IMG/VR virus record: IMGVR_UViG_3300023707_000001
Length of the DNA stretch: 64,000 nucleotides
Source of the DNA: a virus
Lineage: Duplodnaviria; Heunggongvirae; Uroviricota; Caudoviricetes
Strand: one strand, 5' to 3'
Of this stretch, positions 37,386-55,516 are shown piece after piece. The notes under the pieces were generated by a model. That model was not told the DNA's origin. It searched no databases and saw nothing but the letters and a program-made list of their open reading frames with translations. The translations under genes and the position numbers were made by a program. The first letter of the stretch is position 1, and the number at the start of each line of letters is the position of its first letter.

Positions 37386-37472
37386 TCGTTTTATTAGTTT
37401 AGCGCGGCGCCCATTATTAAGGCGCCCTTACGCTAACTATGGTATACCTCATTAGAGATTGGAGATTTTTAC

Positions 37473-38573: not shown

Positions 38574-38643
38574 TTTATTTAATAAGCGGGGAACTCCCTT
38601 AAGGGAATCCTCGCTTAATTTTAAAAATAAAGGAGACCCCCCC

Positions 38644-39480
38644 ATGGATAACAAGATTTATAATGTAACAGTAAAAGGGAAACACTCCGTCGGAGGAGAG
38701 TTAATCTTCAACCTTAGCAGAGATGGCAAATTGCTCGGCAGTGTTAACAAAAAATTGGATGCGGATATGAAAATAATCCTGACCAAAGACAAATACACCA
38801 TGTCCAGTATATTGCCAGACTATTACAAAATGAAAGAAATATATGTAAAAGACCTGGATATAAGCGAACTCGATAGCATGCAAGAAATGTTTTGCGGAGC
38901 AATGGCATTGGAGAAAATTGACCTATCCTCTTTTGATACCAAAAACATAACAAATATGAGATGCTTATTCTTGAACTGCTACCGATTATCGGACATCAAT
39001 CTTTCTGGTCTTGACACTGGTAAGGTCGGCACGATGTGCGATATGCTCTCAAACACCAACATATCCTCTATTGATATTTCAAATTTCAAAACGGACAGCC
39101 TGATTGATATGACGAGAATGTTCAAATCGTGTTGCGAACTGACATCCGTCCGCCTTCCTAAGATAACGGCTCAAAACAAAGGATTGAGTATGGAAGAAAT
39201 GTTCTTCGGATGCAGCAAGCTGACTTCCATTGATTTTTCAAACATAGACACAAGCTCGGTTAAATACATGGGAAGTATGTTTAAGTTTTGCCAAAAACTC
39301 ACCACAATCAGTGGAGTCATCGATATGAAGTCGTGCCTTAACTTTGAATATATGTTTTTTGAATGTCCCAAGATAAGCGGGCTGAAGATAAAAAATCCGC
39401 CGGAAGAATTCATGACTTTTAACAGCGCCGGATATAACAAGGCTTATCTCAATGCTAAACAATTTGAGGTAGTAGAATAA
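38644..39480 (+). CDS. BspA/DUF285-type repeat protein
   Basis: FDTKNITNM..LF..C..L..I.LS repeats and a KNPPEEF cap. Confidence 0.8.
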   Translation: MDNKIYNVTVKGKHSVGGELIFNLSRDGKLLGSVNKKLDADMKIILTKDKYTMSSILPDYYKMKEIYVKDLDISELDSMQEMFCGAMALEKIDLSSFDTKNITNMRCLFLNCYRLSDINLSGLDTGKVGTMCDMLSNTNISSIDISNFKTDSLIDMTRMFKSCCELTSVRLPKITAQNKGLSMEEMFFGCSKLTSIDFSNIDTSSVKYMGSMFKFCQKLTTISGVIDMKSCLNFEYMFFECPKISGLKIKNPPEEFMTFNSAGYNKAYLNAKQFEVVE

Positions 39481-39548
39481 TGGACAACAAGACCCATGAA
39501 GTAAATGTGGCATCCAAAGACATGTTGTCTGTGGTATATGACTTATAA
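39480..39548 (+). pseudogene. Internally deleted cassette remnant MDNKTHEVNVASKDMLSVVYDL
   Basis: Begins like ORF 38644 (MDNK...V.V) and ends VVYDL* like ORFs 39569 and 58493. Confidence 0.55.
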
Positions 39549-39568
39549 TAAAAGGGTGATGATAAATC

Positions 39569-40561
39569 ATGGCTAAAAAACTTAAAAAATATGAGGTATT
39601 AGTTAAAGCCTTAGGCAACTTCTCTTTAGTTAACTTAGATATTAACGTATTAAATAAAAGAGGAGAAAGCGTCTTTAAGAGAATAAAGGAAAGTGCGGCC
39701 AGCGGCTGGCCTAATCCCTATCTTAGTTTTATAGAAGAAAATAAAGAACCGTTTACTCTTAAAACAGGAAAAGCTTCTAAGAGCTGGGGTGGCGTATTAG
39801 AATATTCTACTGATACTCAAAATTGGTCTGAGTGGAATGGCACCGAGATTAGTTCTTCTAATGACGGCAGATTATATTTAAGAGGTACTGGTAATTCCAG
39901 AATTACTGATGGTACTAATCAATTTGTGTTAACCGACAATAGGCGTATTCAATGTTTAGGTAACATAGAAAACTTGCTTGATTATAAAAAAGTTAAAGCA
40001 GGTGGGCATCCAGTAATGGCTCCAAATTGCTATAGCGGTATGTTCCCCAACTGTACTTCTCTCACTAAGGCTCCAGAACTGCCAGCGACTACTTTGGCTG
40101 TGCGGTGCTATAAAGGCATGTTCGCAGACTGCACCTCTCTTACCACAGCTCCAGAACTCCCTGCTACTACACTGGCAGATTATTGCTATGGCGACATGTT
40201 CAAAGGCTGTACATCTCTTACACAGGCCCCAGAACTTCCCGCTACCGAATTAGCTAGTAGTTGCTACCGTATTATGTTCAATAACTGTACCTCTCTTACC
40301 ACAGCTCCGGAACTTCCTGCTACTACTTTAGCTGCAAATTGCTACAACGGCATGTTCTTTGGCTGTACTTCCTTAACTCAAGCACCAGAAAAACTTCCTG
40401 CTACTACTTTAGCTGATTCTTGCTATGGCAGCATGTTCTCTAGGTGTAAGTCTCTTACCGGTGTTATTCATTGTCCGGTATCTACGGCTAACGACTCGAA
40501 TAGGCTTGATGCTAATGCTCAAATCCCCGCTAATACTGCTACTGTAGTTTACGATTTGTAA
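39569..40561 (+). CDS. LRR-like 26-aa repeat protein (CTSLT.APELPATTLA..CY..MF)
   Basis: Five full repeats plus a partial one. Confidence 0.8.
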   Translation: MAKKLKKYEVLVKALGNFSLVNLDINVLNKRGESVFKRIKESAASGWPNPYLSFIEENKEPFTLKTGKASKSWGGVLEYSTDTQNWSEWNGTEISSSNDGRLYLRGTGNSRITDGTNQFVLTDNRRIQCLGNIENLLDYKKVKAGGHPVMAPNCYSGMFPNCTSLTKAPELPATTLAVRCYKGMFADCTSLTTAPELPATTLADYCYGDMFKGCTSLTQAPELPATELASSCYRIMFNNCTSLTTAPELPATTLAANCYNGMFFGCTSLTQAPEKLPATTLADSCYGSMFSRCKSLTGVIHCPVSTANDSNRLDANAQIPANTATVVYDL

Positions 40562-40725
40562 TTCCTAAAATACCTTCCTGTGTCCTAAGGATAGATGTAG
40601 CTAACCTTCCTATCCACAGGTAATATATCCGATGTAAGAGCATGTGAGGTGGCCAGGGTTTTATATGGCCGCCCGCTCTGTCTCTTACAAGAAAATTTTA
40701 TATCTTTTTAAAGGAGAAATGTGTA

Positions 40726-42219
40726 ATGTCCCTTACGAATCTTGCACAAATTAAAGGTGGTCTTCAGCTCCAGGCTGACGTACAGGCTCTTCTGAAGTCT
40801 TACGATGCCGCCAAGGTTCTGACCAAGGTTGCAAAGGCTGTAGGTGAAGGCGAAGAAGCCGCCAACTACAATGCCGAAGAACTGCTGGCAGAACTCAAAG
40901 CTAAGGTTGACGCCATTGCCGGTGAAAGCACTGGTGAAAGTGGCGAAGAAGTGACATCCCTGGCTTCCCTTGCAGCTGCTATCGAAGCACTGAAGGATAA
41001 GAAGCTCAAGGACATGGTCCGCGTTGAGTTCCCGGTTGCCTCCGGCGTAGCTACGCTGCCCGAAAGCTTCGATACGCTGGTTCCGGGCTGCGACAAGACG
41101 AAGGCTCTGCCGGTTTACACGGCTGACAATGAAGTCGTATTCAACGAAAAGGGCGAACAGCTGACCATCGTTCCGGAAACGGGCGTAATGAATGGTGTTC
41201 CGTCTGTAGTAGATGCTGATGCTTCTGCTAAAGCTGAAGACGGCAAGGCCGTTTATAAGGCTATGGGTGATTTCCAGGCCAAGATTTTCCCGGTAGGCGA
41301 ATGGAAGCTTTCCGAACTGCCGACGGAAGCCCTGCTCGACAACAACGAAATGCAGCTCGTTGCTTACAAGACTGCTCTTGATAAGCTCGTTATTGACCTA
41401 ACCCGTGATGAAAACCTCATTGCACAGGTTAAGGAACTCGTTGGCGAAAAGGCTGTACAGGCTCAGCTCGAAGAAGCACTGAAGGCTGTTAACGAAGCTG
41501 TTGCTACTAAGGCTGAAAAGACGGCTCTGGACGAAGTTGACGAAGCTGTTAAGGCTATCGACGAACGCGTTAAGGCTGTTGAAGCTGTACAGGAAACCTA
41601 TGTATCCGAAAAGATTGCGGTTTCCGGTCCTGTAACCGAATTCACTCTGGCCAATAAGCCGAACGATAAGCTGGTTGAAATGGTTATTAACCACCTCGTA
41701 TATCGCGAAGGCGAAGACTTCACGGTTGACCGCGAAGCAAAGAAGGCAGTTTGGACGCTGGGCGCCGATGCAGACGGCTTCGATATCGATGCTGACCTGA
41801 CGGACGCTGTACGGTTCAACTATTTTTTTAAGGCCGCCGGTGGGGTAAATCCTGCACCGGCCCCGACAGATGGAGGCTGGGAAGTAACCGTAAACGTTCC
41901 CAAGAGTGCAACAACGCTTGACCTTCAGAAAGTCCTGACGGCTGAACAGCTCGCAGTAATCACTGACGAGAATGCTGCCGGCCCGGAATCTAATGGCGTA
42001 GGCCGTAAGATTCGCTGCTATGTGAACGGCGTAGAACTCAAATGGAGCTACGAAAACAATGGCGACGAAGAAGTAGAAGCTGCTCTCGTGGCTTCCGGCC
42101 TGACTAAGGGTAAGGAGTTTGTATTCGGTACTTATGAACTGGATAGCTCCAAAATCCTGAACTTCAGCTGCGGCTGGAACGAAACCGGCTGCGACGTAAA
42201 AATCGTTTACAAGCCGTAA
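40726..42219 (+). CDS. Abundant virion fibre-like protein (paralog B)
   Basis: Paralog of 36330 with different internal and C-terminal domains; GGTAATAT motif at 40619. Confidence 0.6.
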   Translation: MSLTNLAQIKGGLQLQADVQALLKSYDAAKVLTKVAKAVGEGEEAANYNAEELLAELKAKVDAIAGESTGESGEEVTSLASLAAAIEALKDKKLKDMVRVEFPVASGVATLPESFDTLVPGCDKTKALPVYTADNEVVFNEKGEQLTIVPETGVMNGVPSVVDADASAKAEDGKAVYKAMGDFQAKIFPVGEWKLSELPTEALLDNNEMQLVAYKTALDKLVIDLTRDENLIAQVKELVGEKAVQAQLEEALKAVNEAVATKAEKTALDEVDEAVKAIDERVKAVEAVQETYVSEKIAVSGPVTEFTLANKPNDKLVEMVINHLVYREGEDFTVDREAKKAVWTLGADADGFDIDADLTDAVRFNYFFKAAGGVNPAPAPTDGGWEVTVNVPKSATTLDLQKVLTAEQLAVITDENAAGPESNGVGRKIRCYVNGVELKWSYENNGDEEVEAALVASGLTKGKEFVFGTYELDSSKILNFSCGWNETGCDVKIVYKP

Positions 42220-42293
42220 AGCTAAATGCAGATTGATAGAGTGCTCCGCCATGGGGCGCTCTATTATTATCTTCTTTTTAGAAAGGTGAGCCA

Positions 42294-42830
42294 ATGGCAT
42301 ACGATAAAACAAATGATTTATTTCCAATTCAGAATGATGTTTTGACAACACTTCTGACGAATAATACCAAAATCTCCAAGCTGAATGGCCTGAAGACTGA
42401 CAGCAAGTCAATCGTAAAAGCAATCAATGAATTACTCGGAAAGCTTACTACGGCCATCGAACAGGTTACTACGGCTACTCAGCAAGCAAATGAGGCAAAA
42501 GGAAGCGTCGCTGAAGTAAAAACCGAAGTCCAGACAATGGTTACTGAAATTGCAACCCAGAAAATGACGGAGGTTGTATCTGGCGGCATCCAGAATGATG
42601 AATTTGCTTGCGAGGACAATCAGACAGTATTCAAGCTGTCCAAGGCACCTGTCGACAAAGACAATATCTTGCTCTATGTTAATGGAGTAAAGTATAGAAA
42701 AGCTGATTACCGTTATGATGAATCGGCAAATACTGTTGAATGGGTTAATACGGACATCGATGAAAATCATCCGCATCCGTTCTACTTAAAAAGCACAGAT
42801 GCCGTGTCAGCCGTATACATGAGTAAATAA
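42294..42830 (+). CDS. Tail-fibre-like protein
   Basis: LKTDSKSIVKAINEL motif; LYVNGV.Y...DY domain shared with 36330 and 40726. Confidence 0.55.
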   Translation: MAYDKTNDLFPIQNDVLTTLLTNNTKISKLNGLKTDSKSIVKAINELLGKLTTAIEQVTTATQQANEAKGSVAEVKTEVQTMVTEIATQKMTEVVSGGIQNDEFACEDNQTVFKLSKAPVDKDNILLYVNGVKYRKADYRYDESANTVEWVNTDIDENHPHPFYLKSTDAVSAVYMSK

Positions 42831-42847
42831 TAGGAGGTTTTTATAAT

Positions 42848-44095
42848 ATGCTTTTAGACGCTAAACAGTTGGATCCGAAATTCGAGCGGTGGTACAAGGA
42901 ATTTATGGCTACCAAGTTCCCGACAGTGAAGTCCGTCGAAATTAATATTCCAGCGTCAGATTTAAAATACGAGAAAAAAGATACTGGCGTGCGAGTTGAA
43001 GTACCTATGAATAGCACGATGGAGAGTATTGTGCTCCCTGCGACGGCGCACGTCAAGTTCGTAAATGCTCCGGAAAAAGATGTAAGCATATACTGGAATT
43101 CAATTGGTCGTTTTGACGGAAGAAATATGGAAGAACAAAATTTCTCCCTTACTCTTGAATACGGAAATTATGTTCCCGACAATGTATCAATCCCAATGAT
43201 GACCATCCAAGCAAAAGACATGAGGTTACCAAAAAATTATTATCGATACATGATGAATAAATTCCCATCTAACAAAACAACGGTCAGTTATCAGGCAATT
43301 GAAACAATCCCTGCGGATGTAATCAGCGAGCTAAAAAAAGATTCTGAAACCACCTACGTCTCCGACGCGCACGAGATGTTCTATGGATGCGGAAAATTAA
43401 AATCTCTTCCGAGCGTAGGACTTGATTTTACGAAAGCTACCGATGTGCACGATATGTTCTATGGATGCAGAGGCATTAAAACAATTCCGCCGGAATATCT
43501 CAATCTTCCTAGCGTCACGAATGCAAAAAATTTTATGCAAGACGTGATTTTAGATGAGATAGATTTTAATCAATTAAAATTAGATAGTCTTGAAAAAGCA
43601 GATAGTTTATTATATAACGCAGAATGGAAGAAACATACAGGGAAGTTAATGCTGAAGAATGTAAAAAGCGCATACAGAATAGGTGGCGGCTTTGGCTCTG
43701 ATTCTTATCCTGTGATAGAGCTCCCGAAAGCTACAAGCATATCAGGAATCTTTACGGACCAGCCGCTATCATGTTCGGTGTTCGATGGAATCATCGCGCC
43801 CAATGCAACGAATTGCAGCGGAATGTTCGCTAACAATTATGGCATTACAGAATTAAAAGTCTTGGAAGTCCCCAATAATAAAAATCTTTACCATGCATTT
43901 TATAACTGCTTCAAATTAGTATCTTTGCCAGTTATTGACCTAACTAATGTTACCGATGTAACGGATATGCTCTTCAAATGCAAGGCTTTGACGGAAGTAA
44001 GGTTCAAAAATGTTCCACAATCATTGGCCGACAAGCTCACTCGAGAAAATCTTGACACTTCTGGAACAACGACGTTCGATATAATTATAGAATAA
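42848..44095 (+). CDS. BspA/DUF285-type repeat protein
   Basis: MFYGC..LK.LP...LDFT.ATD...MF repeats. Confidence 0.7.
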   Translation: MLLDAKQLDPKFERWYKEFMATKFPTVKSVEINIPASDLKYEKKDTGVRVEVPMNSTMESIVLPATAHVKFVNAPEKDVSIYWNSIGRFDGRNMEEQNFSLTLEYGNYVPDNVSIPMMTIQAKDMRLPKNYYRYMMNKFPSNKTTVSYQAIETIPADVISELKKDSETTYVSDAHEMFYGCGKLKSLPSVGLDFTKATDVHDMFYGCRGIKTIPPEYLNLPSVTNAKNFMQDVILDEIDFNQLKLDSLEKADSLLYNAEWKKHTGKLMLKNVKSAYRIGGGFGSDSYPVIELPKATSISGIFTDQPLSCSVFDGIIAPNATNCSGMFANNYGITELKVLEVPNNKNLYHAFYNCFKLVSLPVIDLTNVTDVTDMLFKCKALTEVRFKNVPQSLADKLTRENLDTSGTTTFDIIIE

Positions 44096-44129: not shown

Positions 44130-44170
44130 TAAGAGTCTCTTAACTATTAAGGGGCTCTTTTTTCTCTTTC
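44130..44170 (+). terminator. Rho-independent terminator
   Basis: aagagtctcttaa-cta-ttaaggggctctt followed by a T tract. Confidence 0.7.
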
Positions 44171-44265: not shown

Positions 44266-45795
44266 ATGAATACAACTCGCGGCGTACGCAAAGTAAGCGA
44301 AAATATATTCTCGCATGGAAGAGCGGTAATTCTGACCGAGAAAGATAAAGACAAATACAGGTGGAGTGATATTCCTGTTGGCTCCAAGTTTATTGATACA
44401 ACTACAGGAATCGAAATGGTTAAGCTTCAAGGGGAAAGCGACTGGGTTCCTGCCGGCCTTAAAAATGACGGAACTCTTTGTATTGCAAAAGACTCCCGTT
44501 TTGGGGTAGAACGCTTTGTCGTAAAAGACTTGGTTGATGACCTTGACCCGAGAAAATTTAACTATGTAAAAATTACGGACGATGACAAAGAGCTTGCCCG
44601 AAAAGGATACATCCTATTTCAGAACGATGTAGGAGAACTTGGCGAACTGGACTGTTACGGTAAATTTGCTTCCTGGGATGCTTACCGAAAGGCGAAACTT
44701 TTGGATGACAATGCTCCGGAAGAAAAATATCGGAATACAAAAAAATACGGCTTCGTGTTCAATCTGGAAGATGGTGACTATGCTCTCCTGCGCAGCCATC
44801 TTGATGTTATGATTGACGGCGTTCTCTTAAGAAGCGGTTCGACTGGAACACTCCTTGAGATAGATGAAACACGTTTCTGCTTATTCCAGGATGATATTGA
44901 AGCGGGCATGGAAATCACGGCGAAGTACATCCAGGGGTTCCGCCTTGGCCATCCATACCCCAGAACCTTTATTGGGGACGAAGAACCAAGCGAAAAAGCA
45001 GCGGAAGCTGGCGATTTTTGGCTGGACACGGATGCTGACCTTGAAGATTTGGACCCGTTGGGTGATAAACTCGAAGATGACCATATGATTGGCTGGGGGA
45101 AAATCCGCCCGGAAACCAGGCCAACTTCTTTGGCTGGATATGGTATCAAAGATAACGTGTCGTATGTTGGCCATATGCATGACAAAAGTGAAATTATTGG
45201 ACTCCCCGATAACTTCAAGGCAGATGGTGGCCACGCCGATACAGCTGACAAAGCAAGCAAAGCAGACGTTGCCGATTATGCAAACAAGGCAAATTTTGCA
45301 AGCGCAGCGGGCGCAGCAAGCATTGCAACCAGCGACACGGCCGGCCGCGAAATTACAAAAACGTATGCCACAAAAGACGAACTCAATGAACAGAAAAAAC
45401 GTCTTGACGGCAACGAGTTCGTGAAGAATAACACGTCGAACAGAAATGTCGCCATGCGTGTAGAGGTAGAAAACGGTAAGGAAGTTGTCAATCCGTACAT
45501 TGACGGGCAAAAAGTATCGCTCGGCGGCTTGTCCAGTACACTTGTAGCAGAGCCTGCTTTTGGCCCAAATCATTCCATTTGGGACCAAACAATCAACAAT
45601 TGTTATTTTCGCAATTGCGGCTCCCAAAAAACCGGCTTTTTAAGCATCAATCCCGTATTCGCGCAAGGGCAGACGTATAGTCTGGATGATGTATTAAAGA
45701 AGCTAACATCTTATGCACACAGTCACACTGAAAAACACGATGTCGTAAATAACTGCAACTGCAACTGTAACTGCGGCAGTGACCACTCCCATTAA
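44266..45795 (+). CDS. Tail-fibre-like protein with C-terminal (Asn-Cys)4 tail; putative radical SAM substrate
   Basis: Fibre motifs RPTSLAGYGIKD, GHMHDKSEIIGLP, ADTADKA..AD.A..A and DTAGREITKTYATK; ends VVNNCNCNCNCGSDHSH. Confidence 0.7.
   Translation: MNTTRGVRKVSENIFSHGRAVILTEKDKDKYRWSDIPVGSKFIDTTTGIEMVKLQGESDWVPAGLKNDGTLCIAKDSRFGVERFVVKDLVDDLDPRKFNYVKITDDDKELARKGYILFQNDVGELGELDCYGKFASWDAYRKAKLLDDNAPEEKYRNTKKYGFVFNLEDGDYALLRSHLDVMIDGVLLRSGSTGTLLEIDETRFCLFQDDIEAGMEITAKYIQGFRLGHPYPRTFIGDEEPSEKAAEAGDFWLDTDADLEDLDPLGDKLEDDHMIGWGKIRPETRPTSLAGYGIKDNVSYVGHMHDKSEIIGLPDNFKADGGHADTADKASKADVADYANKANFASAAGAASIATSDTAGREITKTYATKDELNEQKKRLDGNEFVKNNTSNRNVAMRVEVENGKEVVNPYIDGQKVSLGGLSSTLVAEPAFGPNHSIWDQTINNCYFRNCGSQKTGFLSINPVFAQGQTYSLDDVLKKLTSYAHSHTEKHDVVNNCNCNCNCGSDHSH
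45751..45774 (+). repeat. Hexamer repeat (AACTGY)4 encoding NCNCNCNC
   Basis: aactgc aactgc aactgt aactgc. Confidence 0.9.
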
Positions 45796-45815
45796 TTTTA
45801 GAACGAGGTTTTACA

Positions 45816-46490
45816 ATGCTTAAGGTATATACAACATATAAGGAAGAAGATAAAGACCGAAAAAAGCTGGATGTGTCCCTGGATGGGGACATTATCCGCT
45901 TGCAGATTAACGACAACATAGGACGGTATGACGTCAGCAAGCTGGAGAAGAACACGATTTATAAAATTTTCTACGACTTTGGTGGATTTTACCCGACACC
46001 GATAAGGGTGCAGGACGCACCGCAGGGGAGTCAGATTGATAGGTACAGGATGTATGTCGGTAAAGACGGGAACGTTTTACTATCCACCAGCCATAAGGTT
46101 ACGACAACTGACGAGGATTGCGAGATAATAAGTGTCGAAAGAAATTTCTCCCTCCGAAAAGCGGTATGTACGCTCTACCCGGAATACGAAAAAGAAGAAA
46201 ACAAGGTACAGCGCAGATACCGCATTATCGACTCCCTAAATGCAAATATGAGCCTTGCCGTTATCGATGCGCAGCTGGAGATTGTTACAGAACTTCTTAT
46301 GGCTGTCGTAAAAAACAATCTGGATAAACTGGATAACGAAAGCAAAGCCCTGTATGAAATCCTGGAGAAGACATTTGAACAAAACAACCTCTTAAACATC
46401 AAATCCATTCAGAGCATCCAGAGTGAAATCCTGGATAACAAAGCAAGGATTCGTAAAATACAAGAGTATTATTACAACGAAAAAAGGTAA
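45816..46490 (+). CDS. Hypothetical protein (rSAM cluster accessory or fibre chaperone)
   Basis: 224-aa ORF between the fibre and the rSAM genes. Confidence 0.65.
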   Translation: MLKVYTTYKEEDKDRKKLDVSLDGDIIRLQINDNIGRYDVSKLEKNTIYKIFYDFGGFYPTPIRVQDAPQGSQIDRYRMYVGKDGNVLLSTSHKVTTTDEDCEIISVERNFSLRKAVCTLYPEYEKEENKVQRRYRIIDSLNANMSLAVIDAQLEIVTELLMAVVKNNLDKLDNESKALYEILEKTFEQNNLLNIKSIQSIQSEILDNKARIRKIQEYYYNEKR

Positions 46491-46495
46491 GGAAA

Positions 46496-46699
46496 ATGGA
46501 AATAAACGCTAAGATTCCTACGCTCTACAAAGCGGCCATGGAAATTTATGAAAATGTAATCGAGAAAAAAGAACAATATTTTTTGGTGAAGCTACAGCTC
46601 CAGCCGAATGATGACCTGTATCTTTTGCAGGTGTTCTTGGAACTGGCCAAAGAAATCAGTGATGACTTCAACGTGCAGGTAGAGCTGCAAATGGTATGA
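46496..46699 (+). CDS. Small hypothetical protein
   Basis: 67 aa; ATGA-coupled to the first rSAM gene. Confidence 0.6.
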   Translation: MEINAKIPTLYKAAMEIYENVIEKKEQYFLVKLQLQPNDDLYLLQVFLELAKEISDDFNVQVELQMV

Positions 46700-47682
46700 C
46701 TGAGAAGTGCATAATTTATCTGACTGAAAAATGTAACATGGCCTGCAAGCACTGCTACGTGAAGAAGAGCGGGCGGGAAATGACAAAAGAAGTCGCAGAT
46801 AAACTCATCGAGTATCTGAAAAACTTGCCGCATCGTTATGAGAACTATGTTTTTATGGGCGGAGAAACACTTCTTTCAACAGATATCCTGCTTCGTTTTG
46901 TACACGAACTTACCTTTGAGAATACAAACTCCATTGCTATTATGACAAACGGGACGGTGCCTATCCGTCCTTTTGATGAGCAGTTAAGCGAAGCAGAGCG
47001 AAAAAAGATTTACTATAACATATCCGTCAAGGAAATCGGAGCTGTTCCGCCCAAGGGGTTCCTGGAAAACATTGCGTACCTAAAAGAGCGCGGCTTGTAT
47101 TTTTCCCTGCTTGCAGTAAACACTCCGGCCAATATTGATAAGCTGGAAGAGTTTATCCTGTATGCAAAAAATATAGGCAGTGATGCAGCCATTGTACTTC
47201 GGCAGCATATGATGGGTGATTTTTGGACGGAAGAAGACGTCAAAAAATACGCCCCTGTATTAAAACGGCTCCTGCACATGGTTGCATACTACCAGCAAGC
47301 AGCACCTGATTTTCGGATAAGCCTTCCCGGCAAGCCGTTTCTGACCATTGAGGAGGGGATAACCTCCTATCAGAAATACGGAATAAACATTGTTGACCAG
47401 GATTCATTCTGCCAATACAAGATTGTTGGTATGGATGGGACGGTATATCACTGTGACGGCGCCTGTGGCCAGAAAACACACAGCTATGGATACCTGTGGG
47501 AGGAGCAGGAAGATCCATGGATAAGGGAACTGGGCTATCAGGATACGCTTTACGATTACTGTGAGCTTGCCAAGAACAAGGTATTTTTGCCATTTGATAA
47601 GTTAAATGATGCGTGCCGACTGAAACATAAGAGCAATATAGAGCGAATTGGTTTATTAAAGGAAGAAGCAAATAAAATATGA
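46696..47682 (+). CDS. Radical SAM protein 1 (Twitch-like C-terminus)
   Basis: CNMACKHC, MGGETLL, MTNGT, FC....GMDGTVYHC. Confidence 0.9.
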   Translation: MTEKCIIYLTEKCNMACKHCYVKKSGREMTKEVADKLIEYLKNLPHRYENYVFMGGETLLSTDILLRFVHELTFENTNSIAIMTNGTVPIRPFDEQLSEAERKKIYYNISVKEIGAVPPKGFLENIAYLKERGLYFSLLAVNTPANIDKLEEFILYAKNIGSDAAIVLRQHMMGDFWTEEDVKKYAPVLKRLLHMVAYYQQAAPDFRISLPGKPFLTIEEGITSYQKYGINIVDQDSFCQYKIVGMDGTVYHCDGACGQKTHSYGYLWEEQEDPWIRELGYQDTLYDYCELAKNKVFLPFDKLNDACRLKHKSNIERIGLLKEEANKI

Positions 47683-48527
47683 TTGAAAGAACATACAGTA
47701 ACGATACGACCGTATCGATACACCTTACCCATAAATGTAACATGAGATGCCCGCATTGTTATCAAAAGGACTATTCTGGCTACAACGAGATAATGGATGA
47801 AGAAAAGGTATTTTCTGCCGTAGATAAAATCAACCCTGAGACAATTATCATTTATGGCGGCGAGCCTATGCTTTTCCCCAAACAAGTCGCGCGCATTTTT
47901 GACCGATACGAAAAAGATAAAAAGGTTATTATTGCTACGAACGGTACTATCTGGAATAAAGAACTGTATGACCGTGCATATATCATTATGACAACGGTGG
48001 AGAGTTTCTTCTTTTCATTTAATAAGGAAAACCGTCCTTACACCAAAAACCAGTTCAACAACCTGATAAAGCTCCTGGAAACATACAAAGACAAAATCTT
48101 AGTCACACATAATCTTTATCCGAAGCACAATGACCCATATTTTTACAAGATGCAAGAACTCATGGGGCTTAGTGGGCAGCCGTATCCGATTATCGATTAC
48201 TGCGAAGATACGGACCTGGATATAAGAACCATCACGGAATACAATGTGAAGATGGACCAGCTCATTGTACCTAAACTCCGCGTGCTGCCGGACGGTACAA
48301 TTACAAAAGATATGCGTGGTGTATACAACATCTGCAAACCGGAAGACTGGAAACCAGAATATAAAGACGCAGAAGTTCCCGTACATGAAAAATGCAAGAC
48401 CTGTCCGTACAAGGAAAGATGTCCCGGATACAAGATGTTCCCGCATTTTTGCAAGGACGTTCTGGACAAAATAGAGGAACCACACTTCTGTAAGACCGCA
48501 AAATATCTGAGTTCACTTGAGGGGTAA
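47679..48527 (+). CDS. Radical SAM protein 2 (partial SPASM)
   Basis: CNMRCPHC, YGGEPML, ATNGT, CKTCPYKERC. Confidence 0.9.
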   Translation: MIERTYSNDTTVSIHLTHKCNMRCPHCYQKDYSGYNEIMDEEKVFSAVDKINPETIIIYGGEPMLFPKQVARIFDRYEKDKKVIIATNGTIWNKELYDRAYIIMTTVESFFFSFNKENRPYTKNQFNNLIKLLETYKDKILVTHNLYPKHNDPYFYKMQELMGLSGQPYPIIDYCEDTDLDIRTITEYNVKMDQLIVPKLRVLPDGTITKDMRGVYNICKPEDWKPEYKDAEVPVHEKCKTCPYKERCPGYKMFPHFCKDVLDKIEEPHFCKTAKYLSSLEG

Positions 48528-48528
48528 G

Positions 48529-49350
48529 ATGGATAAAGGAATATTTTTCGAAATAACAAATGCCTGCAATCATAATTGCATACACTGCTGTAAGAACTGG
48601 GAAGATAACAGCGAAAAGAGAACCGCCGACAAGGCGGTTCTTGACAAAATACTGGCTTTTCCAAAAAGACACCTTACAATTTCCGGAGGAGAGCCTTCGC
48701 TTGTAAAAGACAAGGTAATGTATCTTGTCGAGCGGGAAAAGACCAAAGTTATCATCAACACCAATATGACCAACTGGACAAAGGAAGATATAACATATCT
48801 TGTTGGCCATGGCGTGGAGTTTAATGTATCGGTAGTATCTCTTGACCGCACAGCGTACAAAAAGATAACGCGGGCGGATACTTACGACATGATGTTTGAA
48901 ACCCTGCAGGAGATTCCCAAAAACAGTTTTATCACGATTGTCGTAAACAGGCTGAACCGAAACACAATTGACTACACTGTGGCAGTTCTAATCCTGATGG
49001 GCTTTACAAATATCATGGTTACACCACAGAAACCGACACAGGACGAACACGTTGATGTGGATGAAATATCCCGGTATGCAGAAAAGCTCCATGAACGGTA
49101 TAAAAATGTCGCGAACATTATGACGCAGGGATACTGCAATGTGAAATTCTGCGACCACCTATGTAATGCAGGCATAGGCCGATTCGTAATCGACACAAAA
49201 CAAAACGTATATCCATGCGCCCCAATTCATAAGGAATGCTTGCTGGGGACGATAGATACTCCATTTGCCGAACTGGAGGAAAACGGCAGGAGGTTCTATC
49301 TGTCGTACCCGGAAGAACAGAGGCATGCTTGTAAGGGGTTCATGCTATAA
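48529..49350 (+). CDS. Radical SAM protein 3 (Twitch/SPASM)
   Basis: CNHNCIHC, SGGEPSL, CNAGIGRFVID....VYPC. Confidence 0.9.
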   Translation: MDKGIFFEITNACNHNCIHCCKNWEDNSEKRTADKAVLDKILAFPKRHLTISGGEPSLVKDKVMYLVEREKTKVIINTNMTNWTKEDITYLVGHGVEFNVSVVSLDRTAYKKITRADTYDMMFETLQEIPKNSFITIVVNRLNRNTIDYTVAVLILMGFTNIMVTPQKPTQDEHVDVDEISRYAEKLHERYKNVANIMTQGYCNVKFCDHLCNAGIGRFVIDTKQNVYPCAPIHKECLLGTIDTPFAELEENGRRFYLSYPEEQRHACKGFML

Positions 49351-49377
49351 AAGCTAAGTAGAAGGTATAAGGAATAT

Positions 49378-50499
49378 ATGCTAAAGATAAGACACTACGT
49401 AGGAACCATATTTGTAATGCTTGGGAGCAGCTGCAACCTAAACTGCAAATACTGCATGCAGCACGCTTTAATAGAAACGCCGGTGCCAGCAAGAAACCTG
49501 GATGCAGGTATCATTGATTTTATCGCCGCCCACGCGGCAGAGTCGGACAAACCGCTTGATGTACGTTTCTATGGCGGAGAGCCACTTATATATATGGACG
49601 ATATCCGACAGATTGTCCACCTGCTTAAGGAAAAGCAGGCCAACGTAAGATTCTCCATCATATCCAATGGCAAGCTCTTAACAGAAGAAATCGTGCAGTT
49701 TTTCAATGCACATAATTTTGAAGTCGCAATAAGCTGGGATGGGGACAACGTAAGTGATACAAGAAGGTATGATGTCGTAAAAGAACATCGCGCTGAGCTG
49801 CTGCAGATAGACAACCTTAGTATTGACGGCGTCCTTACCTCATATAACTATATATATGATTTCCTACAGGCAAACGTATCCTTGCAGGACGAATACAAAA
49901 AACTCCATGGATACACATACAAAGTTTTTACCGATGAAATCATGGATTGCGATAACTCAAGCCGGGAGCTTACAAATGTAGACCTCAAAAGGGTGTACGA
50001 GCAAAGCGAAGCGGTAGTAAAGAAAGCTCTAAGTGATGAGGTAGAGCACAGCACGCTGAGCAGAATGTGTTTTGAAATCTTTTACCGGGCTGTATTTAGA
50101 AGCATGATTTCTGAAAAGTCATGCCTGAGTAAGGATTATTGCGCCTGCAGCAATGCAGTTTGTACGATTAACCTGGACCTGGATGGCAACCTGTACCAGT
50201 GTCACAATAACTGGAAAAAGGTTGGCAATATATTCCTGGATAACTATGAAACATACATGGCCCATGCAGTTATCAACGAGAACATATCCAGACATAACCA
50301 TGAAAACCACTGCAAGGATTGCGAAGCATCCCTTATGTGCTCAACAGGTTGTCCGCTCATCGGGCAGCCCATGCGTGAAAAAACGGGGTACTGCGAAATG
50401 AAAAAGGCATCTTTTCTTCCTTTTATCAAAGAGATACGGAAGATGCAGGAGCGGCCAGAGGAATTTTCAATACTACAAAGCAAGGATATGACGGAATGA
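49378..50499 (+). CDS. Radical SAM protein 4 (full SPASM, anSME/peptide-maturase-like)
   Basis: CNLNCKYC, FYGGEPL, ISNG, ISWDG, DLDGNLYQC, CKDC.....C.TGCP, YC. Confidence 0.92.
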   Translation: MLKIRHYVGTIFVMLGSSCNLNCKYCMQHALIETPVPARNLDAGIIDFIAAHAAESDKPLDVRFYGGEPLIYMDDIRQIVHLLKEKQANVRFSIISNGKLLTEEIVQFFNAHNFEVAISWDGDNVSDTRRYDVVKEHRAELLQIDNLSIDGVLTSYNYIYDFLQANVSLQDEYKKLHGYTYKVFTDEIMDCDNSSRELTNVDLKRVYEQSEAVVKKALSDEVEHSTLSRMCFEIFYRAVFRSMISEKSCLSKDYCACSNAVCTINLDLDGNLYQCHNNWKKVGNIFLDNYETYMAHAVINENISRHNHENHCKDCEASLMCSTGCPLIGQPMREKTGYCEMKKASFLPFIKEIRKMQERPEEFSILQSKDMTE

Positions 50500-51653
50500 A
50501 AACAGCTTTCTTTAAAAACACAGACACGACCACTATCTATATACAGCTCGGCAACGCTTGTAACCTTCGGTGCAAGTATTGCTACCACAATAATGACGAC
50601 CAGAATTATTACCCGCCGCCAAAAATCAATGACGATATTTTCAGCTTCATTGAGGAATGCTGCGCCCGTCAGAAGAGTAAGGTAAAACTCCGCTTCTTCG
50701 GCGGAGAACCGCTTATGTACGTCAAAGAAATCAAATACATTGTAGAGCACCTGACGCATATTCCAAACCTGGAAAATACATTGATAACAAATGGCTCCCT
50801 GATAACAAGGGAGCTTGCCGACTATTTTAATGAGCATAATTTTAGCATTACGGTAAGCTGGGATGGACATCGTTTCTCTAAAAAATATCGTGGATATGAT
50901 GCCCTTGAGGAGAATCGGGATAATATTTTTCGGATAAAGAAACTAAATATACTAACATCCATCGTAGAGCTTACCAAAATAAAAGAGATTATTGCTGACG
51001 TCGAAAAAGAGGTAAACATCTATTATGCCAGACAGAAACGTGCATTTGGTATGTCCTGGACGCTAATTGACGACCTCGGTACACAGAGCGAATTTGTCGA
51101 CAAACACAGTAAAGAGGAAATTTCTGCAGAGTTTAGATGGTTTGCAAACAGGATAAAAGAAGGGCTTTTCCTTCCGCCGAACAAGAAACAGCCCATCGAT
51201 ACAGTGTTGGAATCTTTATTCTATGCTGACTTACAGGGCGCGACATCTACCATATATCGCAGTCAGAGCATTATGCGTGGCAGCGACAATCCTACAACAT
51301 TCTCCCTTGACCTTGAGGGGAACCTGTACGAAATGCATAGATTTCCGGAAGTATCCAAGTATTCAAAAAAAGTTTGCACAATCTATGATAATTACTTTGT
51401 ATATCTGCAGCGGATATTAGGTAATATAGACTTCAGAGAGCAAATGAAACGCAACAGTTGTAAGATGTGCAGTTGTTACGGTTTATGTAAAGCTCCCGGC
51501 CCAAAACTTGATGTAGCGGCTGAAAATGAAAACTGTAAAAACAGACAGGCTACTTTTAGACCGATTATCGAAATGATTGAAGAGTTATGCGGTAAACCAC
51601 TTAAAGAAGCTCTTATGGAATGGTTTTATACAGGAGATTACAAAGAACGTTAA
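50496..51653 (+). CDS. Radical SAM protein 5 (SPASM-like, paralog of protein 4)
   Basis: CNLRCKYC, FFGGEPL, ITNG, VSWDG, DLEGNLYEM, CKMCSCYGLC. Confidence 0.9.
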   Translation: MKTAFFKNTDTTTIYIQLGNACNLRCKYCYHNNDDQNYYPPPKINDDIFSFIEECCARQKSKVKLRFFGGEPLMYVKEIKYIVEHLTHIPNLENTLITNGSLITRELADYFNEHNFSITVSWDGHRFSKKYRGYDALEENRDNIFRIKKLNILTSIVELTKIKEIIADVEKEVNIYYARQKRAFGMSWTLIDDLGTQSEFVDKHSKEEISAEFRWFANRIKEGLFLPPNKKQPIDTVLESLFYADLQGATSTIYRSQSIMRGSDNPTTFSLDLEGNLYEMHRFPEVSKYSKKVCTIYDNYFVYLQRILGNIDFREQMKRNSCKMCSCYGLCKAPGPKLDVAAENENCKNRQATFRPIIEMIEELCGKPLKEALMEWFYTGDYKER

Positions 51654-51669
51654 AAGGATGTAAATAAAA

Positions 51670-52902
51670 ATGACTCCAATAAAGATAAGTTATCGGGATT
51701 TGTCACCAGAGCTTAAAAGGATGCTTGCGGGGCAGGGAATCCCCGATGAAGCATTAAAAGCCCTCTTGCAGGATTATCGCAAGAAGGATGAAAACATCAG
51801 AGAAAATGATATTGAACTCAAATATCGTGACCGCATTGACGGACGGTTCGATGAAGTAAATGATAAAATCGACAAACACATCCTGGATTACGAGGAGCTG
51901 CCACTCGATGTTCTGACGCCAGAGCTAAAAACGCGGCTGGAATCGTTGGAGAAGGCCGCCAAATATGAGGACGATAATATAAAATCCCTTCAGGGTGTTT
52001 TGGATAAACTGGAAGAAAAAATCCGTTCACTGCAAACTATCCAGGAAAACATTATCAACAGTGGCGGTGGGGGTGGAACGTCCGCCGATGAAGTCAGTGG
52101 CTCCATTGTATTGCTGGATGAATCCATTAAAGACATCAAAAAAAGGATTGAAGACCTCAAGGAAACGCTGCTCACAAAACGGGATACAAATGTCCCCATT
52201 ACAAGGTCGGATCTGGATGACACGATTGCCAGCATGTTGAACACCCTTGACGAGAACAATCAAAGGATTGAAGAAAAAATCCAGCAAATTGACAAGATTG
52301 TGGAGCAGATTAATGGCTCTGAGCCGGGGAACTTTATCGGTGTTGATGACGAAGGCGCTATAAGCACAAAGGAGCTTAGCATGACGCTTCCGATTGCATA
52401 TACAATGAATGACCTTAACAGCTATTCAAACGACGCTACTGCAAATAATGTGCTTGTGTATTCAGAAGGGCAGATGTTTAAGAAGCTGAAAGACGGTGAA
52501 ACGCCGGCCGCCGAAACATTAGAAAAATATCCGAATATCCCAAAAGGATGGGATATAGACAAGGAATATTTTTTAAACAACCAGACTGAGCTTAATACGA
52601 TTATCTACGACCGCAAGAAAAAGCATGCGGTAGGAATCACGAGAAGTGATGGCGTAATCCGCTTTGTGCTGGACTATAAGACAGGCTTTTCCATTACACT
52701 GGATGTCGATGAAAAGAAGGTTGTTCCAAGAAGCAACACCTCCAGTAGGGAAACACCTATTATATACATCAAGACGGTAGATGAAGATGGCAATGAAGCA
52801 TACCTGGATTCTGATTTTTATGTATCCGTTATTTATGGCGAGTCTTCATATACACTGGAAAACTTCTCCGGCGAAAAGTTGGAGTTACTATTACTGGAGT
52901 AA
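51670..52902 (+). CDS. Coiled-coil, putatively structural protein
   Basis: 410 aa with a heptad-rich N-terminal half. Confidence 0.6.
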   Translation: MTPIKISYRDLSPELKRMLAGQGIPDEALKALLQDYRKKDENIRENDIELKYRDRIDGRFDEVNDKIDKHILDYEELPLDVLTPELKTRLESLEKAAKYEDDNIKSLQGVLDKLEEKIRSLQTIQENIINSGGGGGTSADEVSGSIVLLDESIKDIKKRIEDLKETLLTKRDTNVPITRSDLDDTIASMLNTLDENNQRIEEKIQQIDKIVEQINGSEPGNFIGVDDEGAISTKELSMTLPIAYTMNDLNSYSNDATANNVLVYSEGQMFKKLKDGETPAAETLEKYPNIPKGWDIDKEYFLNNQTELNTIIYDRKKKHAVGITRSDGVIRFVLDYKTGFSITLDVDEKKVVPRSNTSSRETPIIYIKTVDEDGNEAYLDSDFYVSVIYGESSYTLENFSGEKLELLLLE

Positions 52903-52907
52903 GAGCA

Positions 52908-53423
52908 ATGGCTTTAATGAAATGGTTGAAAAGAAATGAGAATGGTGAAAGGGAATGGATTTCTCTTTACGCAAATGCCATTATAAATAGGCTTCGGCGG
53001 GACAGGAACTTAAGCGACCTGCAAAACCCCGCCAAGGCCAGAGAAAATCTGCAGCTGACAGAAGAGGTTATCGACCACTGGCACGACAAACACTACCAGC
53101 CGATGTTTGACCAAATCCGCAAAGAAATGGCGCAGCTTGAAATTAAGCTTATGACGGCGATTAAAGATTTGCGCAATGACGTAAAAGCGGTAGATGACAC
53201 CCAGAACAGGGAGATTGAAAACTTAAAAGAGATTATCGAAGGCAAGAGCGTCGGCGTAGTCGCTATGAATTCAGAAGCAGCACTAATAAGGGGTGCAATC
53301 ATCGAATGGGCGGGCGCCCGCGATGCTATTCCGGACGGATGGCATATCTGTGACGGGACAGATGGTACACCAGACCTAAGCAAAGACTTTACGGAAAACG
53401 TATGCAAGATTATGAAACTGTAA
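52908..53423 (+). CDS. Tail-fibre/collar-like protein
   Basis: RNLSDLQNPAKARENL and GAIIEWAG...IPDGWHICDGTDGTPDL. Confidence 0.7.
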   Translation: MALMKWLKRNENGEREWISLYANAIINRLRRDRNLSDLQNPAKARENLQLTEEVIDHWHDKHYQPMFDQIRKEMAQLEIKLMTAIKDLRNDVKAVDDTQNREIENLKEIIEGKSVGVVAMNSEAALIRGAIIEWAGARDAIPDGWHICDGTDGTPDLSKDFTENVCKIMKL

Positions 53424-53427
53424 GGAG

Positions 53428-54189
53428 GTGGAAAGATTGCTACTTACAAAAGCAAAAATCATAAAGGACTTTTCCGACAAAATCTCCTTTTTGCTTACTG
53501 GAAAAACCAAGATAGAACAAAAAGTTGCAGACATGGATGAAGACCTGAGCAAAAAAGCCTCCACAGAATATGTAGATAAAAAAGTTGCAGACCTGGTAAA
53601 CGGAGCGCCTGAACAGCTGGATACACTGCAGGAGCTTTCCAAAGCCCTGAATAACGACACCGATTTTGCAACAACGGTAAATAAGAGCCTTGCTGAAAAG
53701 TTACCCCTTACAGGCGGAAAAATCGACGGTAACCTCGAAGTTAGCGGGGCGATTACAGGAGGCCATATTGTCGCCAATATGCTGCTATGCGCAGATGCAC
53801 GGGGAGACAACAGGACGCCGGAATGGTATATGCATGGCGGTGCTGGCCAAAAAAACGAACTGAAAACCAAAAATATTATCGGTATCGACGGTACAAAAAC
53901 GCTCGTAGAAGTATCCACCTATGTGCCATGGAATACGGCTGACGGTGGCTATCCCATGCAAATTGCCCGTGATTCCGTGGAGGGCAAGGTATATGTAAGA
54001 TACGGCCTGACCTCTGTAACATGGAGCGACTGGAAAACGGTAGCATTTACCTCGGATAAAGCAGCTGCTGCAGTGACAGCAGACACTGCAAAAAGCGTTG
54101 CCTGGGAAAACATAACGGGAAGGCCCAAATACATGAAGGCCGTTAATTGGGACCCTGAAACAGGCGTATTTGAATTAGTGGAGGGCTAA
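53428..54189 (+). CDS. Tail fibre protein
   Basis: LVNGAPEQLDTLQELSKALNND.DFATTV, KLPLTGG, WSDWK. Confidence 0.8.
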   Translation: MERLLLTKAKIIKDFSDKISFLLTGKTKIEQKVADMDEDLSKKASTEYVDKKVADLVNGAPEQLDTLQELSKALNNDTDFATTVNKSLAEKLPLTGGKIDGNLEVSGAITGGHIVANMLLCADARGDNRTPEWYMHGGAGQKNELKTKNIIGIDGTKTLVEVSTYVPWNTADGGYPMQIARDSVEGKVYVRYGLTSVTWSDWKTVAFTSDKAAAAVTADTAKSVAWENITGRPKYMKAVNWDPETGVFELVEG

Positions 54190-54354: not shown

Positions 54355-54900
54355 ATGCGAGTATTTTTAAATCCTGGCCATGACCGTGATTACGATTCGG
54401 GCGCCTGCCACTGGAGCGGCACCCGCGAAGCGGATATTGCATGGGAAATTGGCAACAAGGTAGCCGAGTATCTGGAAAACGCAGGCGTTGAGACCATGGT
54501 AATGCAGTCTGATAACCTCTGCGGCTGGGACTGTGACCGTGAGGACCGTCCGGAAGCGGTATGCCCGACTTCCGATGCATGGGGAGCAGACCTTTTTGTT
54601 TCCATCCACTGCAATGCATTTGACCAAGTCGCACAGGGCACGGAAGTAGAGTACTATTCCGAAACGGGCGCCATTGCCGCACAGTTTATCCAGGACCAGA
54701 TTGTTGGTGCTCTTGGTACTGTGGACCGCGGTATTAAGTTCCGGGATGACCTGATAGTATTGAAGCATACGGACGCACCGGCAGTTCTTGTTGAATGCGC
54801 TTTTATTGATAGCGACAAAGACCATGAAAAGCTGGTAAACCGCACGGATGAATTCGCTGCAGCTATCGCACGCGGTATCACCGATTTCCAGAGTGCTTAA
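54355..54900 (+). CDS. N-acetylmuramoyl-L-alanine amidase (Amidase_3) endolysin
   Basis: VFLNPGH, E, FVSIHCNA, PAVLVECAFI. Confidence 0.9.
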   Translation: MRVFLNPGHDRDYDSGACHWSGTREADIAWEIGNKVAEYLENAGVETMVMQSDNLCGWDCDREDRPEAVCPTSDAWGADLFVSIHCNAFDQVAQGTEVEYYSETGAIAAQFIQDQIVGALGTVDRGIKFRDDLIVLKHTDAPAVLVECAFIDSDKDHEKLVNRTDEFAAAIARGITDFQSA

Positions 54901-54913
54901 GTGAGGCGATGAT

Positions 54914-55516
54914 ATGTCAGTATTCGACCTTTCCCGCTGGCAGCCGGCAGACCGTATTGCGGAGCTGGTTGAAGGCGGAAATTGCGACGGCGTCATCTTA
55001 AAGCTCGGTGAACGCAATGATAAAACGGGCGAGATTGAACTTGACCCGATGTTCATTACCCATGTGAACGAGGCAGTTCGTTTTGGCCTGCCCTACGGTA
55101 TCTATATTATGGGCCGTGCAAATAATGAGGCCGAGGCATTGGAAGAAGCCGAATGGGTAAACGACCGTGTTGCAGAGCTCTTAAACGGACAAGAACCGTC
55201 ACTTGGCACATGGTTTGACTTGGAACGGCAGGAAGTAAAACGCGATGACGTTTACGAAGATTACCGCGCCGCTATTATCCAGCTCCGTGAATGGTGGGGC
55301 GGCAGCCGTAAAATCGGTATCTATGCGTCGTTTTCCTATTTTGAAAGATTCCTGTGTATCGGGGATATGGCCGCAAACAGTATTCCGGTATGGAATGCCC
55401 AGTACGGATTTACGGACTCTATGAAAAATGAGTATCCGTATATTAAAACGGTTTTGTGGCAGTTCACGACACACGACGACTATCAGGATGAGAATGTGTG
55501 GTACGGCTGGTATTAA
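54914..55516 (+). CDS. GH25 lysozyme (muramidase)
   Basis: FDLSRWQ, WFDLE, GIYAS, WNAQY, LWQFT. Confidence 0.85.
   Translation: MSVFDLSRWQPADRIAELVEGGNCDGVILKLGERNDKTGEIELDPMFITHVNEAVRFGLPYGIYIMGRANNEAEALEEAEWVNDRVAELLNGQEPSLGTWFDLERQEVKRDDVYEDYRAAIIQLREWWGGSRKIGIYASFSYFERFLCIGDMAANSIPVWNAQYGFTDSMKNEYPYIKTVLWQFTTHDDYQDENVWYGWY

Follow-up and report, generated by a model that had tools for sequence, protein, structure and literature searches.

A candidate radical SAM cassette for covalent maturation of a cysteine-rich tail-fibre tip in a tailed phage

SPASM-type radical S-adenosylmethionine (SAM) enzymes encoded next to a cysteine-rich target are known from the ranthipeptide/SCIFF systems (CteB-CteA, PapB-PapA) and from NxxcB-NxxcA. 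The same arrangement is found in a 64,000-nucleotide stretch of a Caudoviricetes genome (IMG/VR record IMGVR_UViG_3300023707_000001, here called the window), where five radical SAM genes (rS1-rS5) follow the gene for a 509-aa tail-fibre-like protein ending in an (Asn-Cys)4 run. In the described systems the target is a short leader-core peptide, whereas in the window it would be the C-terminus of a 509-aa fibre, and the cysteines are spaced as CxC and not as Cx3D or isolated NxxC motifs. Unlike the ranthipeptide/SCIFF systems, the window locus has no recognition element of the kind found with ribosomally synthesised and post-translationally modified peptides (RiPP recognition element, RRE), no leader protease and no exporter, and its enzymes score far below the family cutoffs. 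It also differs from the ranthipeptide and NxxcB systems in holding five enzymes and a new helper family.

The nearest precedents for a giant precursor are QhpD/QhpC and CrpC/CrpA of Methanococcus voltae (PMC13692751, 2026), in which SPASM enzymes form Cys thioethers in a large or folded protein whose gene lies alongside. QhpC and CrpA are cellular proteins (an enzyme subunit and an archaeal Cys-rich protein, respectively), whereas the putative substrate in the window is a predicted phage structural protein. Moreover, QhpD and CrpC use an RRE or N-terminal domains, while recognition in the window would presumably go through a helix-HxH segment or through the helper. SPASM radical SAM maturation of a Cys-rich target is thus the known part of the proposed system, and the unusual part is its target, a virion host-recognition protein. 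Trimeric phage fibres such as the T4 gp37 tip and gp12 have HxH metal sites near their distal end, and the tip described here likewise has an invariant HxH, which may also, or instead, be a trimer metal site like theirs; these T4 fibres are not known to have a Cys ladder or a maturase. No description of the present system was found in the literature on radical SAM enzymes, tail fibres, thioethers, ranthipeptides and phage-encoded RiPPs.

A fibre tip linked to radical SAM genes

The 509-aa protein ends in ...NNCNCNCNCGSDHSH, with a second Cys-containing motif, NNCYFRNCGS, upstream of the (Asn-Cys)4 run, and two open reading frames (ORFs) separate its gene from the five CxxxCxxC radical SAM genes, all of which lie where the original prediction had placed them (Table 1). 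The codon pattern for (NC)4 occurs once in the window and in 0 of 100 shuffles. The run belongs to a tip domain, formed by the last ~75 residues, that consists of an amphipathic helix (GTYxLxxLLxxL), HxH, a linker of 7-18 aa and a (C-N/D/Q) run; in an alignment of close tips these elements appear as G-x-Y-x-[LI]-x2-[LIV][LI]-x-K-L, S-H-x-H, a short linker and an (xC) run of 3-4 Cys. The domain was defined by G-x-Y-x-[LI]-x2-[LIV]-[LI]-x2-L, HxH and a (Cx) run of at least three within 7-18 aa, at or near the C-terminus, and the 509-aa protein has all of these. When a profile built from eight tips was searched against 1.84 billion representative proteins (E <= 1e-3), it matched 191 clusters (50% identity clustering), the 509-aa protein being the second-best match (E = 8e-19; E = 3e-18 with A2, an independent hidden Markov model (HMM)). 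No Pfam or NCBIfam model covers the domain.

Tip features were counted in 149 listed representatives, with the window protein excluded. An alternating-Cys run of 2-6 Cys (nearly always 3-6) is present in 148 of them, HxH stands 7-18 residues upstream of the run in 143, and the run lies within 15 residues of the C-terminus in 126. The residues that alternate with Cys are Asn (54%), Asp (26%), Gln (8.5%) and Ala (3%). The tip is found at the end of proteins of ~100-640 aa and on its own in small proteins of 57-120 aa; 22 of the 149 representatives have 140-210 extra residues after the run. The upstream Cys pair is a more restricted feature: it is kept as KDCSHGNCTF in the ortholog of a related locus, L010, and is absent from the aligned tips of L094, L001, L003 and L006, which have one to three radical SAM genes each. 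A complex prediction with three copies of the tip gave a score of 0.00 with the partner fold uncertain, and was counted neither way.

The link between such tails and radical SAM genes was assessed by scanning viral contigs for a DNA pattern encoding (NC)4, blind to radical SAM genes, with radical SAM neighbours called by HMM. The scan returned 71 viral ORFs with an in-frame (NC)4 at most 25 residues from the C-terminus, and for 57 of these the locus includes a radical SAM gene. In 54 cases this gene lies downstream, at a distance of 10-5300 bp (more than 3.1 kb in a single case), and in three it lies ~300 bp upstream, always on the strand of the ORF. Twelve of the 14 unlinked ORFs have less than 2.7 kb of downstream DNA. 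Counted per locus, radical SAM genes accompany 56 of 70 C-terminal (NC)4 loci versus 2 of 50 control loci, taken from the same DNA-pattern scan, in which the pattern is not a C-terminal tail (Fisher p = 3e-18). Once stripped of their tails, the 71 ORFs fall into 13 sequence families, and ten of these have linked members (10 of the 11 informative ones); the three unlinked families comprise one without flanking DNA, one low-complexity ORF and one real case (L087). A locus search based on the tip alignment gave 14 loci. Eleven of these include 3.3 kb or more of downstream DNA, and all 11 carry radical SAM genes downstream, as do, directly downstream, all contigs with CxCxC-tailed full-length homologs of the 509-aa protein (L001, L003, L006). 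One further locus, L008, has neither tip nor radical SAM gene. The co-occurrence of (NC)n or (xC)n tails with adjacent radical SAM genes, which the original prediction had put forward as a check, was therefore strongly positive, in three independent ways.

The 509-aa protein is present on 16 contigs from several samples. Its N-terminal ~330 aa are common to more than 100 metagenomic phage proteins (40-58% identity) with differing C-termini, which include Collar-domain ends and several other recurrent ends; receptor-binding proteins are usually built in this modular way, with C-terminal tips swapped on a shared N-terminus. There are five full-length homologs of 447-448 aa, with the ends ...SSHEHKTN..NCRCRCDNDHG or ...CHSHS..RCRCDRDHG. 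Tip-bearing proteins from other loci match tail-fibre families, those of L060 and L032 with collagen-like tail-fibre PHROGs (E = 1e-48 to 1e-70) and the tailed proteins of L049, L065, L127 and L035 more weakly, and the tip protein and the radical SAM enzyme are separated by a fibre-like gene in L132 and L135-L141. An AlphaFold2 (AF2) model of the N-terminal 400 residues of the 509-aa protein (predicted local distance difference test (pLDDT) score 74) found uncharacterised gut myovirus proteins as its best fold matches (E = 5e-13) and no PDB match at E <= 0.001. The neighbourhood of tail genes and lysins, the tips of the homologs and the fibre families of tip-bearers elsewhere point to a fibre. 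This identity is well supported and unproven, since it rests on context and homologs and not on a family match of the protein itself.

Some of the extensions that follow the Cys run were recognisable. In P0141 (PF05203, E = 2e-10) and in gp028 of Achromobacter phage JWF, the extension is an autoprocessing domain of the Hint (intein-like) type, starting at the last Cys or immediately after it; other tip proteins with an extension after the run are P0139, P0153 and ~19 more. After self-cleavage by a Hint domain, the mature protein would end with the Cys ladder, or a reactive thioester would arise there. A separate observation concerns the run in the window itself (45751-45774), the codons of which form a near-perfect AACTGC hexamer repeat, so that slippage could alter the number of Cys.

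Enzymes, helper and related loci

All five enzymes pass the PF04055 cutoff (44-62 bits against 29.5), with CxxxCxxC at residues 13-29, and all five have intact CxxxCxxC and GGE motifs. Each enzyme has about 13-25 residues ahead of CxxxCxxC. The best NCBIfam matches of rS4 and rS5 are PapB, SCIFF/CteB, QhpD, CcpM and anSME. Against the PapB family (NF047865, cutoff 340 bits) rS4 scores 102 bits and rS5 86.5 bits, and rS4 scores 86 bits against the SCIFF maturase TIGR03974 (cutoff 425) and 70 bits against anSME TIGR03942 (cutoff 349), in each case below the cutoff. The CXXX-repeat maturase family TIGR04115 is matched by rS1 alone and also below its cutoff (25 bits against 350), and the target repeat here is CxC, not CxxxC. 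rS4 was aligned to CteB (5WGG) over CteB residues 98-418, which covers the core and SPASM domains and not the N-terminal RRE region (E = 1e-16), and the CxxCx5Cx3C of rS4 falls on the CteB SPASM domain. rS4 and rS5 are paralogs with 27% identity, and the best structural relatives of rS2 include the epimerase YydG and viperin-like enzymes.

The original prediction had assigned SPASM/Twitch-type Cys patterns to the five enzymes. Auxiliary [4Fe-4S] clusters are bound by 7-8 C-terminal Cys in SPASM domains and by about four in twitch domains. Conserved Cys outside CxxxCxxC were counted between the window enzymes and their L010 orthologs, and the assignment held fully for rS4, whose eight conserved Cys make up the full SPASM set. 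It held in part for rS5 (five, four of them C-terminal), rS3 (six, five of them C-terminal) and rS2 (five, namely CxxCx5C and two more), which have about one auxiliary-cluster set each, and hardly at all for rS1, with two, both C-terminal. Almost all radical SAM partners of tips in other loci are of the rS4/rS5 type, the rS4 type being the commonest and the rS5 type the second. Beyond the L010 orthologs, any counterparts of rS1-rS3 are distant and confined to a few loci (L021, L027, L029).

The first of the two ORFs between fibre and enzymes, u224, had been listed as unknown; it is no bystander, given that it belongs to a helper family recurring with these systems. u224 has a beta-rich N-terminal half and a helical C-terminal half, its AF2 model is poor (pLDDT 58), and it found no match in Pfam, PHROG or NCBIfam and only its own cluster in a word-index search; Atlas searches with u224 and u67 gave nothing usable. 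Genes of the u224 family adjoin a radical SAM gene in L010, L001, L094/L145, L133, the L035 group and phage JWF (gp029). An HMM made from five recognisable u224 relatives matches JWF gp029 (E = 3e-8) and, in the largest (NC)n family, an ORF of ~232 aa just 5' of the radical SAM gene (E ~1e-7 to 1e-9). With the helper family found both in JWF and in the largest (NC)n family, the conserved core of the system therefore comprises a tailed fibre, a helper and a SPASM enzyme, a trio seen repeatedly in many unrelated phages. As judged from sequence, the universal partner of the tip is an rS4/rS5-type, CteB/PapB-like SPASM enzyme without RRE, together with a u224-family helper.

The closest related locus is L010, where the tip protein has 243 aa, ends in ...SHVHSSSVAQCTVNCNCNCNCHSSNSH and has a different N-terminus, resembling the window's 171-aa gene at 52908. 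Six radical SAM genes are present there, five of which are one-to-one orthologs of rS1-rS5 (35-61% identity, with rS2 at 61%), along with orthologs of u224 (29% identity) and u67 (26%; p79, the sole u67 ortholog detected). Because all seven downstream genes have one-to-one orthologs in L010, the eight-gene unit was kept while the tip, a portable domain, changed scaffold.

Two isolated phages, Achromobacter phage JWF and Ralstonia phage RSP15, have rS4-like genes in their tail modules. In JWF, gp028 (L147:3664-5115), annotated as T4-gp36-like with Hint, carries ...QNCNCDCNCNCSCF directly followed by the Hint domain, and the next genes are gp029 and the radical SAM gene gp030. The side tail fibre gp048 of RSP15 ends in ...NTNCQCGN, three genes before the radical SAM gene gp045. 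Neither the radical SAM gene nor the Hint-fibre is taken up in papers on relatives of phage JWF.

Two other loci have a second, independent multi-enzyme version. In L021:3051-11662 (minus strand) and L073:240-6597 (minus strand), stand-alone tip proteins of 67-79 aa (..ML.IL.EL..HTH.F.DDYST.CNCNCNCNC.RGIL) lie between fibre genes and are followed by four radical SAM genes in L021 and at least three in L073, with unknown proteins of ~240-420 aa. In L009:13385-15600, an rS4-type gene comes after a gene for a 351-aa glycine-rich (PF12810-like) protein with nine Cys, which may be a different class of fibre-associated substrate.

What the cassette may do to the tip

We consider it fairly probable that the fibre tip is modified by the products of the co-transcribed cassette and that the core SPASM reaction most likely forms thioethers from Cys to Asn, Asp or Gln. 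Modification of the Cys ladder by one or more SPASM enzymes is the most economical reading, because the nearest characterised enzymes form thioethers and because the residues alternating with Cys are known acceptors. [quoted passage not shown] The residues between the Cys of the tip match the acceptor range of NxxcB and the acceptors of PapB and QhpD, which is a hint in the same direction.

According to this proposal, the 509-aa protein would be one of many receptor-binding fibres of a large phage from gut-type metagenomes, and the cassette, expressed late, would modify its tip before or during fibre assembly. As the enzymes are without RRE, the tail would be presented to them by the helix-HxH segment, a candidate recognition and/or trimer metal site, by u224 or by both. 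rS4 would carry out the core reaction, probably with its paralog rS5, forming ranthionine-type thioethers that link the sulfur of Cys to the beta or gamma carbon of a neighbouring Asn, Asp or Gln, either within one chain or between the three chains of the fibre. One may speculate that the product is a disulfide-free covalent knot, redox-independent and resistant to proteases and reducing conditions. rS1-rS3 would then be lineage-specific extras, perhaps directed at the additional upstream Cys pair or at modifications of another kind. The wider proposal, that phages of many environments install a ladder of thioether (or other radical) crosslinks at the distal end of their receptor-binding fibres through a kit of tip, u224-type helper and RRE-less SPASM enzyme, with five chemically distinct enzymes in the present lineage, stands in our estimation at about an even chance.

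Several points weigh against this interpretation. All evidence for tip modification is genomic association; from gene content, domain family, co-occurrence, orthology and enzyme class we infer that the tip is the substrate and is modified, that the chemistry is of the thioether type, and what part each enzyme and the helper might have and how the phage might benefit. A tip so rich in Cys and His might just as well be a metal site. All five enzymes stay below every curated NCBIfam maturase cutoff, even in the best match, that of rS4 to PapB, and the Pfam SPASM model (PF13186) was not reported for the window enzymes at E <= 0.01. The 509-aa protein itself has no tail-family match in Pfam or PHROG, and its N-terminal fold shows only a faint match to the N-termini of known tail spikes. 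The (NC)4-tailed ORF of L087 has a flank of 10 kb without a radical SAM gene, and in L009 an rS4-type gene is present without the tip. Finally, the proposal does not account for the need for five enzymes in this lineage, and enzyme number does not follow Cys number: L094 has (NC)5 and one radical SAM gene. A strict rule of one enzyme per Cys was rejected on this locus, with five run Cys against one enzyme.

If the tip is the substrate, the reaction might still be other than thioether formation, such as formylglycine formation (anSME-like), D-epimerisation, C-C or C-O crosslinking, or formation of a metal or iron-sulfur centre on the trimer's Cys/His ladder. We regard this as rather unlikely. 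In its favour, anSME is among the full-length matches of rS4 and rS5, the relatives of rS2 include YydG and viperin-like enzymes, and the presence of five different enzymes hints at several reactions. A resemblance to metal motifs of trimeric fibres, such as the HxH iron sites of T4 gp37, is also seen in the invariant HxH and the terminal DHSH/NSH. However, the closest characterised relatives of the universal partner (CteB, PapB, QhpD) are thioether formers, the tip lacks C/S-x-P/A-x-R, the target motif of anSME, and the bias to Asn, Asp and Gln between the Cys fits known thioether acceptors (PMC9389541).

It is much less probable that the enzymes act on a cofactor, a nucleotide, a DNA base or a host target and lie in the fibre module by chance. 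Weak generic similarity to MoaA, QueE and viperin, the radical SAM genes that phages do have for DNA modification and the tipless rS4-type gene of L009 would fit such a role, but it would not predict a near-obligate link to one short C-terminal motif in 10 unrelated protein families, nor co-inheritance of tip and whole cassette on a different scaffold in L010, and no nucleotide or cofactor pathway genes accompany the radical SAM genes in the cassette. We would give slightly less weight still to the idea that the tailed proteins are oversized RiPP precursors, with the fibre part as leader and the modified Cys-ladder peptide cut off as a bacteriocin-like or signalling peptide. The stand-alone tips of 57-120 aa and the self-cleaving Hint domain beside the run in some members are in its favour, although cleavage by Hint would leave the run on the fibre, since the domain lies C-terminal to it. 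The N-terminal parts are bona fide fibre scaffolds, common to fibres with other tips, the cassettes lie between structural genes and lysins, and the gene content of the cassette includes no protease, exporter/transporter or immunity gene. The original prediction had likewise noted the lack of a small precursor, protease and exporter, and none was found at the locus: no small Cys-rich precursor ORF was detected in the window, where all small Cys-containing ORFs are out-of-frame overlaps, and none of the features of a canonical RiPP cluster (a leader-bearing short precursor, an RRE on the maturase or a partner, a leader protease or exporter) was found with the cassette. Within the window, the tip HMM matches the 509-aa fibre only and the radical SAM HMM rS1-rS5 only.

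Covalent maturation of fibre tips by radical SAM enzymes, our preferred explanation, is outside current models of phage assembly. Host range in phages is set by receptor-binding fibres, and if the proposal is true, a tip transplanted without its maturase kit might fail to fold or work in the new phage, which matters for fibre engineering. It would also account for a widespread unannotated domain, that of the 191 clusters, and for puzzling radical SAM genes in tail modules, and it would extend RiPP-type chemistry to large structural proteins, beside the 2026 CrpC/CrpA result, with redox-independent stapling of trimeric proteins. The outcome would be a new class of post-translational virion maturation and a very large reservoir of protein-modifying radical SAM chemistry. 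The cultured Achromobacter phage JWF (gp028-gp030) allows the proposal to be tested directly.

Cassette layout and genome context

Coordinates of the features are collected in Table 1. ATGA overlaps join u67 to rS1, rS1 to rS2 and rS4 to rS5, the three overlaps that had been claimed. For rS3, ATG 48529 is probably the start, and not TTG 48517: the ATG lies 2 nt past the rS2 stop and is preceded by GAGGGG, while the TTG is inside rS2. The claim that no terminator lies between 44.2 and 54.2 kb held with one qualification, a weak plus-strand candidate at 52866-52884, downstream of the radical SAM genes; it is the second plus-strand candidate before 54.2 kb, after the hairpin upstream of the cassette, and none lies within the cassette.

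Table 1. Features of the fibre-tip cassette and its flanks in the window
Feature	Position	Strand	Basis
Strong terminator-like hairpin, 13-bp stem and T run; closes preceding gene, upstream cassette edge	44131..44159	+	
509-aa tail-fibre-like protein, putative substrate	44266..45795	+	ORF; contig homologs
Upstream Cys pair NNCYFRNCGS (C446, C451)	45595..45624	+	sequence and tip alignment
Amphipathic helix and HxH (GQTYSLDDVLKKLTSYAHSH), tip-family signature	45667..45726	+	tip alignment/profile
(Asn-Cys)4 run, proposed modification site	45751..45774	+	codon pattern
u224, putative 224-aa helper	45816..46490	+	ORF; family HMM
u67, 67 aa, no Cys	46496..46699	+	ORF; L010 ortholog
rS1, radical SAM, 328 aa	46696..47682	+	PF04055
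rS2, radical SAM, 282 aa	47679..48527	+	PF04055
rS3, radical SAM, 277 aa from TTG 48517 (273 aa from ATG 48529)	48517..49350	+	PF04055
rS4, radical SAM with full SPASM Cys set	49378..50499	+	PF04055; CteB alignment
rS5, radical SAM, rS4 paralog, partial SPASM	50496..51653	+	PF04055
Three more fibre-module genes (410-aa coiled coil; 171 aa; 253 aa)	51670..54189	+	PHROG for last two

The cassette lies within a long plus-strand run of late genes of a large phage. More tail-fibre genes had been expected downstream, and the ORFs at 52908-53423 (171 aa) and 53428-54189 (253 aa) do match PHROG tail-fibre families; two endolysins follow the fibre module at 54355-55516. A DnaE-type polymerase, RecJ and an exonuclease are encoded upstream of the cassette region. 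Neither megablast of the cassette nor tblastn of two tip proteins against GenBank phages gave a match, and a related-locus search of genome contigs with rS2 found no relative.

At least 12 fibre-like or adhesin-like genes are present from ~28.9 kb onward in the window. Upstream of the cassette, the stretches 36330-44095 and 24386-26101 hold many adhesin-like paralogs with leucine-rich repeats of the BspA/DUF285 type (..CTSLT..ELPATTLA..), and the number of alternative receptor-binding proteins in this phage seems unusually high. Many contigs bearing this fibre family span 210-340 kb, which suggests jumbo-phage genomes and not prophages; the window nonetheless has an integrase gene, at 61062-62057.

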